Source: a bacterium (GTDB lineage: Bacteria > SAR324 > JACQKK01). From it: 64,000 bases of DNA. Made by a program: the position numbers. The stretch is from NCBI GenBank assembly GCA_965240465.1, contig OZ251219.1, positions 288,001 through 352,000 of the forward strand, in the 5' to 3' direction. Each line of letters opens with the position of its first letter. Position 1 is the stretch's first letter. Below are positions 19,701 through 22,700 of the stretch, one piece after another.

Positions 19701-22700
19701 GACCCTGACGCTGAATAAAAAACATGGGAACATCCAGGGCGTACTGGACATAATCTGCATAGCCAAAGTCGGCATGCAGAGCTCGCTTAATAAACCCACC
19801 GCGATGAGAATCTACATGCTCCCAGATCCAAGCTCTCTCGGATAAACGACCGCACGGTTTTCCGTCTACAAAGGGAGAAGCCGCAAACAGGGCGGTTACT
19901 AGGGGCGTCAATAGTAACATTAGACGCAATTTGCGTCCCATATCGGACTCATCGGAATAGTCCAAGTTAACTTGTACCGTGCAGGTATGCTGCATCATGT
20001 CCAGAGCCATAGATCCTCTGGTGGATAGATATTTCCGCATTATCGCATAACGCTCTTTGGGTACCCAAGGAGAATCAGCCTCGTGCACAAAGGGAATACG
20101 CCCGATTGTGAGCCATCCCAAGCCGAGTTCAGCTGAAATGCCTTGAATTTCTTTTAGATGCTCTCCCATCTCATGACATGTATGATAGGTATCTGGCTGT
20201 ACCAAGCCGCTTAGCTCAAATTGTCCGCCTGGTTCCAGCGTGATAAAGGATCCATCTTTTCTTTTAAGGGCAATAGGATGCTTACCCTCATAAACCGCCT
20301 GCCCGATTGATTTATCTGCTAGTTTCTCCAGCAAGATATTAATTCCAGCTTGATTTTTTGTTCCATGGTAGGGCAAGCGAGAATTATTGGATAAGAACCC
20401 AAATTTCTCATGCTCTGTACCTACTCCCCAACTTGAGCGAGGTTTCTCGCCGCGTAGAAATATGGAGCATAAGTCCGATTCCTTACGAATAGGAGGAGAA
20501 TCTCCCTTGAAATTGGTGGTGGACATCAGTACGTTCCGTTAAAATGGCTGGCCTACGAATACTTGAACCATAAACGGCTCTTACATATCATACGCGAACC
20601 AAAAGCCTAATTTGTCCCTTACTTTATCATTTCACTAGTGGTGCATTTATGCCAACTCATAATATCGGCATCAGTACAATTTACTTTTAAGCATGGTAGA
20701 AGGTAAATGATGTATCTAGCATAATCCTGTCTTTCCCCATTTGATAGAATACTGCTTTTGTGAATCGCCTTTTGCTTCAATTTGCTGCTTGGCTGGAGCT
20801 GAGCGGTTATTCCCCCAATAGTCTGCAAAGCTATCGCTTGGATGTAAAGCGTTTTATCGCTTGGATGGCAAACACCAAAAAAATCAATCCGCCAGACTTG
20901 AAACTACTCACCCATGCCGATCTGCATAACTATCTTATGACGCTGTCTCAAATGCTAAAACCGCGTTCAGTGAATCGTCATTTATCTTCTTTGCGATTGT
21001 TTTTTCACTTTCTCCAGCAGCACGGACTAATCAGCGATGATCCTTCCCTCCGCCTGCAGATACCTGCCCTACCTCCCATGCCTGCCCCACCATTGCCAGA
21101 AGAACAACTCAACCTACTCCTGACCGCCTCTAACCCCGATACCCCCCAAGGCTTGCGCGATGCCGTTATGCTGGAACTGTTGTATCACTATGGCTTGAAA
21201 CTAAACGAATTGACCTCCATCAACACCGCCGATCTGCTACTTAAGACCAGTGCCCTACAAATTAGAGGCCGTAGAGCTCGTACGCTAGTGCTTTCCGAAC
21301 AAAGCTGTAAGCTGCTAACACTCTACCTTAGAACCGCACACCCTAAAATGATCAAAAATCGCCCCGCACCCTGGCTATTTCCTTCTCGCAGTGGCAAAAG
21401 ATTAGACCGCATCGGAGTTTGGAGGCTCATCAATCGCCGAGCCGCCAGAGTGGGACTTACTCAACATTTCACGCCCCGTAGCTTAAGACATGCACTCGCC
21501 ATCCAACTATTGAAAAATGGACGAGAACTAAAATCCGTCAAAAAATTACTCGGCTACCAAAGAAATGAGGGCATGGCAATATACGCCCATATCACTCCCA
21601 AAAATTCCCCCTCTGCCGACCGATAACCTATCTCACGCTACTCAAATACGTCGCTATAATGCCAGTGTCAAGTACTCAAACCCTAAAAAATATGCTCCCT
21701 CCGCATTGGCAAAAACCTCTGCCTTCTAAACGACCATTTGTTACCCTCAAAGTCGCCATTACCCTAGACGGTAAACTTGCTGCTGCTAATCATCACTCCC
21801 AATGGATCACCAGCCCCCCTGCCCGTGAACATGCTCACCAACTGCGAGCTGAGCATCAAGCCATCTTGGTAGGACACAAAACAGTGCTCCATGATGACCC
21901 CCTACTAACCGTCCGACTCAAACCACCGCCTCGCTCACAGCCCATCCGCATTATCTTAGATTCCAAAGCCCAACTAGCTCAACAATCCCCGCGATGCCTA
22001 GCTAATCCCATACCCTCTGAATCGCCTATCATGGCAGTAGGTAACCACGCTCCCCAAAAAAACATCCGCTCACTACTACAAAAAGGAATCCGAGTCTGGC
22101 AAGACACTCAACACATCCAGCCTTCCATACCTCATCTGCTTAAATGGCTAAAACAACTATCCATTAACTCCCTGCTCGTAGAAGGAGGCTCCCAAACCTA
22201 CACTAGCCTAATCCAAACCCAAACAGCCGATGCCCTCGCCCTTTACCTCGCTCCACGCCTGATGGGACAATCACAAGCCCTAAACTGGTGCCAAGACCTC
22301 GGACTGATAGGACTTACAGACCTACCACAACTGAAAATACTCACCTCACAACCATTAGGCAAAGATCTCTTCCTGCTCGCCCGCTTTCTGTGAACCACCA
22401 CCACCCAAAAACTTGACACGGAGTTAAATCGTGGTACCATATCGGGGCTGGAGTGCTTGATCGGGCTGAGCAATACTTTTTAGCCAGCATCTTGCCACGT
22501 TAAATTCACCTCGGTTGAACTGGAGAACTTTTGACGAAAAAATTATCACTGCTTTCGGCTTGTATTTTCGCTCTATTTTTAGCTAGCTGCGGGGGGAGCA
22601 GCGGAGGCGGCGGGGGGCCTGCTGATGCCGATTCCGATGGCGTCCCCGACAGCAAGGATCTGTGCAAAAATAGCCTTGATGAAAACTTCATCAGCAGTAG

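Follow-up and report, generated by a model that had tools for sequence, protein, structure and literature searches.

The locus considered here raises two linked questions: can a XerD-like recombinase with an altered active site still recombine DNA, and, if it cannot, why is it kept? The gene lies in the window, the whole 64,000-nucleotide stretch of a SAR324 genome (G000; contig OZ251219.1, positions 288,001 to 352,000) that was analysed. Its features and its two neighbours, the latter as context only, are listed below in window coordinates; residue counts refer to 58 distinct SAR324 sequences with profile scores above 370, lower-scoring sequences from outside SAR324 being excluded.

19018..20526, minus strand: glutamate-cysteine ligase (gshA-like), divergent neighbour of the altered XerD gene
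20760..21626, plus strand: altered XerD gene, 288 aa, with core-binding and catalytic-fold domains (Phage_int_SAM, Phage_integrase)
21198..21200, plus strand: K147 at the Arg-I position, Lys in 58/58
21270..21272, plus strand: R171 at the catalytic-Lys position, in a loop 2 residues shorter; Lys in 44 and Arg in 14 of 58
21477..21488, plus strand: R240-x-x-R243, with His-II replaced by Arg in 58/58 and Arg-II kept
21555..21557, plus strand: Y266 at the His/Trp-III position; Tyr in 54, Phe in 2, 2 truncated
21582..21584, plus strand: Y275 at the nucleophile position, kept in 56/56 readable sequences
21659..22393, plus strand: RibD C-terminal reductase, the downstream neighbour in family f1

By sequence, the closest solved relative of the protein is E. 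coli XerD (1a0p; E 1.9e-32), which is also the top fold match of its AlphaFold model (pLDDT 85). The XerD profile TIGR02225 outscores the XerC profile TIGR02224 (199.5 vs 169.8 bits, both below cut-off). For the SAR324 orthologs, too, TIGR02225 is the best model, at 199.5-261.6 bits against a cut-off of 329.6, and exceeds the XerC model by 25-42 bits in 6/6 proteins. Both the sequence and the two-domain fold are thus of the XerD type, but the catalytic set R-K-H-R-H/W-Y is replaced by K, K/R, R, R, Y/F, Y. The alignment with 1a0p bears out the changes reported in the initial annotation, namely, Arg-I to Lys (K147), HxLRH to RxLRH (R240), and LGH to LGY (Y266), along with retention of the second Arg (R243; present in 57/57 readable sequences) and of the Tyr (Y275). 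The order-wide fixation claimed there is complete for the Lys and the Arg and nearly so at His-III, where 2 of 56 sequences have Phe. In contrast, the loop of the catalytic Lys is not absent, as had been stated, but shortened, with a basic residue, Arg in this protein, right after the Gly position. The tail that follows the Tyr comprises 13 residues, compared with 23-32 in the commonest ortholog lengths, and is similarly short (about 13 residues) across this genus.

Orthologs are present in 59/64 genomes of the order (16/19 in family f1 and 43/45 in family f2), and none was found in 24 genomes of other SAR324 orders. The relatives were retrieved by an alignment-based contig search; a single-protein search matched nothing. 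In G002, from which an ortholog had been reported missing, a C-terminal fragment with the same RxLRH, GY, and Tyr lies at a contig end. No copy was found in G008, G013, G015, G042, and G060 (5/64 genomes of the order, 73-92% complete). The gene is under purifying selection, with dN/dS of 0.047-0.141 in 13/13 pairs that we picked. Although the sequences are only 31-55% identical, K147, E150, R240, R243, and Y275 are invariant, and so are the DNA-contact positions R73, R214, R217, and W221. The exact Lys-Arg-Arg-Tyr-Tyr set, sought in the best 150 cluster representatives, is found only in top-scoring SAR324-like proteins. The SAR324 proteins form one clade in a midpoint-rooted FastTree phylogeny of 14/58 SAR324, 37 Lys-type, and 30/83 canonical sequences, built without a support test, from which the order of events is not derivable. 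The protein is a real, order-wide, selected XerD variant that does not qualify as part of a working XerCD system.

The neighbourhood of the gene varies from family to family. The reported adjacency to gshA in related genomes is partial (10/53 loci); zapA is the commoner neighbour, directly upstream in 26/53 loci at a distance of about 400 bp, a gap that, we assume, may hold 6S RNA. A ParA-like ATPase is directly downstream in 5 loci, and scpAB is not linked to the gene in any of the 53. Elsewhere in the window, short tandem repeats occur in and between housekeeping genes (13161-13344, 15737-15825, 18226-18292, 18947-19051, and 19253-19321), among them an in-frame one of 15 bp in gshA and one of 24 bp that lies at the end of a purM-like gene. 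Three tandem paralogous lipoprotein-like ORFs of 696-1024 aa with Asp-rich and Gly-rich repeats span 22531-30599 on the plus strand, and 17053-17367 on the same strand holds a small ORF of the Xre/MbcA/ParS antitoxin type, for which no toxin partner is seen among ORFs of at least 80 aa.

The partners of XerD are likewise affected. XerC, which the initial annotation reported missing, does not score above the TIGR02224 cut-off in any of the 88 genomes of the phylum; because the control for this profile passes in only 3/14 genomes, the absence call relies on a further observation as well, namely, that the altered XerD itself is the best match in most genomes of the order. FtsK (PF01580), with at most 29 candidates scored per genome, was found in 0/19 genomes of f1, 1/45 of f2, 0/5 of f3-f6, and 8/19 of f7, and the FtsK-gamma domain (PF09397) in 0/5 genomes tested. 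The only FtsK-domain matches in the phylum are short proteins of about 500-600 aa, in the 8 genomes of f7, plus a single frame of 1058 aa in G053 (L105-L110). The absence of XerC and near-absence of FtsK among these matches suggest that the lineage lost both. In the terminus quarter of G000, a strict palindrome search yields no canonical-type dif match, and the XerD-arm 9-mer is not enriched (4/14). A separate observation concerns the topoisomerases: G000 (C1:136595-137917), G001, G008, and G065 (4/5 genomes tested) each have only one GyrA/ParC-family gene, that is, no separate topoisomerase IV.

Whether the altered active site is dead can be judged against Cre. According to passages of a saturation study, most residues are tolerated at His-II, but five substitutions there, His289Arg among them, abolish activity in vivo; R173K fails in vitro and yet works in vivo, W315Y performs almost like the wild type in vivo, and the strict requirements are limited to the Tyr and the Lys (PMC2943603). 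Among the integrases, those of the CTnDOT type function without Arg-I, as described in parts of PMC8138268. The altered XerD combines both Cre-type lesions, Arg-I to Lys and His-II to Arg. Judged by these combined substitutions, the protein probably cannot recombine DNA, but the new residues and the Tyr are invariant, which leaves room for a rewired site; very probably, it is not the dimer resolvase.

That role would fall to a second enzyme. The altered XerD is indeed the only Xer-like gene of this genome, as claimed, but it is not the sole tyrosine recombinase: G000, which is 83.6% complete, has only two PF00589 matches, and the other one lies outside the window, with a palindrome next to it.

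G000 C1:1,446,149-1,447,165 (C1:1446149-1447212, L063, with the palindrome): intact Cre-like tyrosine recombinase
G000 C1:1,447,195: palindrome with the core CGGTAA-N6-TTACCG, just upstream of the Cre-like gene

The gene sits between lon and aroQ-like genes (names read from the translations) and encodes the full catalytic set of R, K, H-x-x-R, W/H, and Y. Cre is its best solved match by profile (E 1.6e-29) and by fold, and its nearest plasmid relatives are 33-35% identical. The enzyme is present in 14/19 genomes of f1 (one of them with a contig-end fragment), 2/2 of f3, 1/1 of f5, and 1/1 of f6 (4/5 for the small families f3-f6 together), with a second copy in G012 and weaker matches in G026 and G076. 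Its neighbours are common to the f1 genomes, and it is an intact, single-copy, vertically inherited recombinase.

The palindrome, whose arms are conserved and whose 6-bp core varies, is found shortly upstream of 13/13 native f1 copies that have upstream DNA; the second G012 copy and the four f3-f6 copies lack it there, and the 1.5-kb flanks searched around the f5 and f6 copies did not yield it. In G000, there is a single occurrence of the exact core. A looser pattern of 11 bases for the f1 site matches across the genome no more often than background, so that the weight of the site comes from its position and not from its rarity. With dnaA at 605.7 kb, the palindrome is 42 kb from the opposite point of G000, taking C1 as closed, and inside a broad GC-skew plateau that has maxima at 1.33 and 1.56 Mb by two measures. 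(As an aside, the DnaA proteins of G000, encoded at C1:605074-606393, and of G001 are unusually divergent compared with those of G038, G064, and G065, scoring about 205 bits against a cut-off of 344.) Relatives offer the stronger, out-of-sample test of position. In them, where skew maxima are local to windows of 200-400 kb that we chose, the site is 11 kb from the maximum within 400 kb in G001. In G065, a perfect 12/12 palindrome at 703,267, the top score in 200 kb, is separated from the maximum by 2 kb and from the gene by 43 kb. For G064, a 200-kb window was chosen to include the sole exact pattern match in it; this match, with a palindrome score of 9/12 that is not the top one, falls 14 kb away from the local maximum and is separated from the gene by 670 kb. 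In G000, a promoter-like site for the Cre-like gene also has its -35 hexamer at the centre of the palindrome, a signal that is weak alone (1 found, 1.5 expected by shuffling). In both G064 and G065, the site lies away from the gene and the altered XerD was not found; thus, the site tracks the Cre-like enzyme and the terminus; it does not track the altered XerD, nor is it tied only to the promoter. A palindromic site with a 6-bp core is present at the terminus, and it is highly likely, judging from the enzyme's residues and the position of the site, that the two resolve chromosome dimers.

Other families of the phylum carry different enzymes. In f2, 41/45 genomes encode a different intact, single-copy tyrosine recombinase with a conserved C-terminal tail that was not found in the other 43 genomes (L084-L103, L192-L201). 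No palindrome adjoins its gene; a 34-bp candidate at G038:C1:3835511 (L262:1501 region), 16 kb from the skew maximum of G038 within 400 kb of 4.26 Mb, was found with at least 10/13 arm pairing in at least 9/45 f2 genomes, G038 included, with a doubtful match in G030, and presumably belongs to this recombinase. A third enzyme, likewise intact and single-copy and 48-49% identical to plasmid integrases of environmental chlamydiae (L375-L393), is present in 18/20 genomes of f4 and f7, with a dif-like palindrome upstream in 5/19 loci. The three recombinase families are mutually no more than about 21-22% identical, and strong matches to them cover 77/88 genomes without overlap. An inner core, CG(A/G/T)TAA-N6-TTA(T/C)CG, is common to the f1/f3 site and the f2 candidate. 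Among the proteins retrieved, many of 600-750 aa have two tandem Xer-like units, mostly with intact catalytic sets (P0005, P0007-P0011, P0013-P0040, and others).

We propose that a single remodelling of the XerD active site, in the order's ancestor, became fixed and yielded a DNA-binding pseudo-recombinase; that XerC and FtsK were lost in the lineage; and that, in this family, a domesticated Cre-like enzyme, acting alone on a terminus palindrome that would also overlap its own promoter, resolves chromosome dimers. The altered XerD would be kept for the second job of XerD, binding DNA in the terminus region and unloading Smc-ScpAB loaded at parS by ParB. In B. subtilis, XerD unloads Smc-ScpAB at dif-like XDS sites, as described in parts of PMC11840125, PMC11894783, PMC12322038, and PMC8357415. 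We give this explanation, taken as a whole, nearly an even chance. A non-recombining role as such, already suggested in the initial annotation, has become much better supported, by the missing XerC and FtsK, the intact recombinase with its terminus site, and the inactivity of the His-II to Arg change in Cre. The particular job of SMC unloading is more tentative: it is the likeliest single job, but a guess from analogy and not from a result specific to it.

In favour of SMC unloading, G000 encodes Smc, as previously noted, as well as ScpB, and has a perfect parS 13 kb from dnaA; the retained paralog scores as XerD, not XerC; and 5/21 clostridial Arg-to-Lys XerD-like loci have scpA within 5 kb. 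Against it, ScpB is found in 82/88 genomes, including 23/24 without the altered XerD, and G008 (92% complete, 6 contigs) combines ScpB and the Cre-like module with no altered XerD detected. In G000, no 8-12-mer is enriched at the terminus above three control regions, a comparison with little power for few degenerate sites, and the 12 of the top 40 half-site matches that fall in the terminus quarter are about what chance would give.

It is possible, if rather unlikely, that the protein is non-recombining but has another job, that of a sequence-specific or nucleoid DNA-binding protein, for example, an anchor between the terminus and the divisome or a transcription regulator, in a lineage devoid of FtsK. 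All the evidence of inactivity applies equally here, the invariance of R73, R214, R217, and W221 fits DNA binding, SMC does not track the altered XerD, and the genes directly next to it, zapA upstream (26/53) and the ParA-like ATPase downstream (5), are suggestive. However, the link to zapA is weak given the gap of some 400 bp, the neighbours differ between families, and no candidate binding motif was found in G000.

An active site that is rewired and not dead, in which the Lys, Lys/Arg, Arg, Arg, Tyr, and Tyr still cleave slowly, helping by nicking, relaxing, or decatenating, or else recombine another site, seems improbable. The invariance of the altered residues and the Tyr, needless for a merely dead site, speaks for it; furthermore, the loop has a basic residue in 58/58 sequences, the Cre mutants R173K and W315Y are active in vivo, an alternative Arg rescues the CTnDOT Int according to a passage of PMC8138268, and no separate topoisomerase IV was found in the four genomes named above. 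This reading is opposed by the loss of recombination in vivo upon the His-II to Arg change in Cre (PMC2943603, in part), by the combination of the changes, by the missing XerC and FtsK, by the loss of the tail in the genus, and by the intact resolvase that is already there.

We consider it quite improbable that the altered XerD acts, without cutting, as a partner or regulator at this terminus site, binding together with the active recombinase or gating it in place of FtsK. The f1/f3 and f2 sites do share their inner core even though the enzymes are only about 21% identical, the altered XerD is common to both families, and the R148K change in XerC/XerD stimulates the partner, as passages of PMC2943603 have it. 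Nevertheless, G064, G065, and G008 have the Cre-like module without the altered XerD, which is thus not needed for it; the site is symmetric; and the streptococcal YnbA neither bound difSL nor altered XerS recombination, according to parts of PMC1914069. A decaying relic or an assembly artefact, as its absence from the five genomes listed above might suggest, is hardly credible and is ruled out by the same substitutions in 58 sequences and a dN/dS of at most 0.14, and the gene is retained in the 1.6-1.7 Mb genomes G000 and G001.

The non-recombining XerD that we favour has a precedent in YnbA, a conserved streptococcal XerD that lacks two catalytic residues and the C-terminus, is inactive on difSL, and stands beside the acquired XerS/difSL system (passages of PMC1914069). 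In both cases, a XerD-like protein is without catalytic residues and the extreme C-terminus, dimers are, or would be, resolved by one unrelated recombinase, and the site of that recombinase is just upstream of its gene, possibly with autoregulation. The differences are that SAR324, a different phylum, has fixed Lys, Arg, and Tyr; that XerS depends on FtsK (PMC3025954, in part), which was not found in the SAR324 order with one exception among 64 genomes; and that the replacement enzyme is Cre-like and not XerS-like (NF003462, only 18.5 bits). Moreover, the altered XerD scores 28 bits against the streptococcal XerD model PRK02436 (cut-off 178) and is, therefore, an analog of YnbA, not an ortholog. 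The B. subtilis XerD (RipX) is itself intact as a recombinase, and its partners are XerC and FtsK-family proteins; it resembles the SAR324 protein as a XerD paralog in a genome with Smc-ScpAB and parS, but dif-like XDS sites were not found in the G000 terminus.

For the Cre-like enzyme, the closest parallel is P1 Cre/loxP: Cre is the best solved relative, most f1 members share a Trp at the His-III position, and a palindrome with a variable 6-bp core is near the gene. Cre resolves P1 dimers, as stated in part of PMC8138268. Unlike Cre, however, the SAR324 enzyme, about 20% identical to it, is chromosomal, single-copy, and vertically inherited, located at the replication terminus, and its site has different arms. 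XerH/difH, XerL/dif, and the archaeal XerA/dif are similar in using one enzyme and one terminus site near the GC-skew maximum. Of these, XerA is FtsK-independent (passages of PMC5357621), and the Coxiella XerL is plasmid-encoded, with an FtsK requirement that is not settled in the corresponding parts of 10.1101/2021.09.12.459815. None of them is Cre-like by the present searches, and a retained altered XerD is not described in the source passages.

XerD-like genes in the clostridial nudF-spoIIM-xerD-pnp-scpA locus (L163-L190) also have Arg-I replaced by Lys and a shortened or Lys-less loop with the Tyr kept, in a set that was retrieved by patterns containing Lys and is, hence, selected for it. 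In contrast to SAR324, His-II is variable, His-III is mostly kept, and the genes form a separate clade. XerS does not exceed the cut-off in any of five clostridial genomes, so a rule that a degenerate XerD goes with XerS is unsupported. These genes are possibly a widespread second case of a disarmed XerD.

Our literature search, with most subscription journals outside it, found no work on Xer or FtsK in SAR324, and passages of PMC8138268 that note class-specific Xer substitutes do not name a Cre-like one. The YnbA precedent caps the novelty of the altered XerD, which by itself is moderate. The larger result is the FtsK-less Cre-like resolvase with its terminus site, which would explain why XerD could be disarmed. 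Dimer resolution without FtsK and XerC can now be tested with a named enzyme and a named site in three families, and so can the question of why degenerate XerDs such as YnbA persist, for which SAR324 provides an independent case and the clostridial variants maybe a third. Genome engineering could gain an orthogonal tool, too, from a domesticated Cre-like enzyme whose site is short and differs from loxP. In the broadest version of our proposal, which we offer with slightly more reserve than the SMC role itself, SAR324 would have dismantled the whole FtsK-XerCD-dif system, with three mutually unrelated recombinases of the plasmid type, among them a chromosomal Cre that has its own lox-like terminus site, resolving dimers FtsK-free in different families, and the XerD of one order would have become a dedicated non-cutting SMC unloader whose active site only grips DNA. 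If true, this would be a natural separation of the two functions of XerD.
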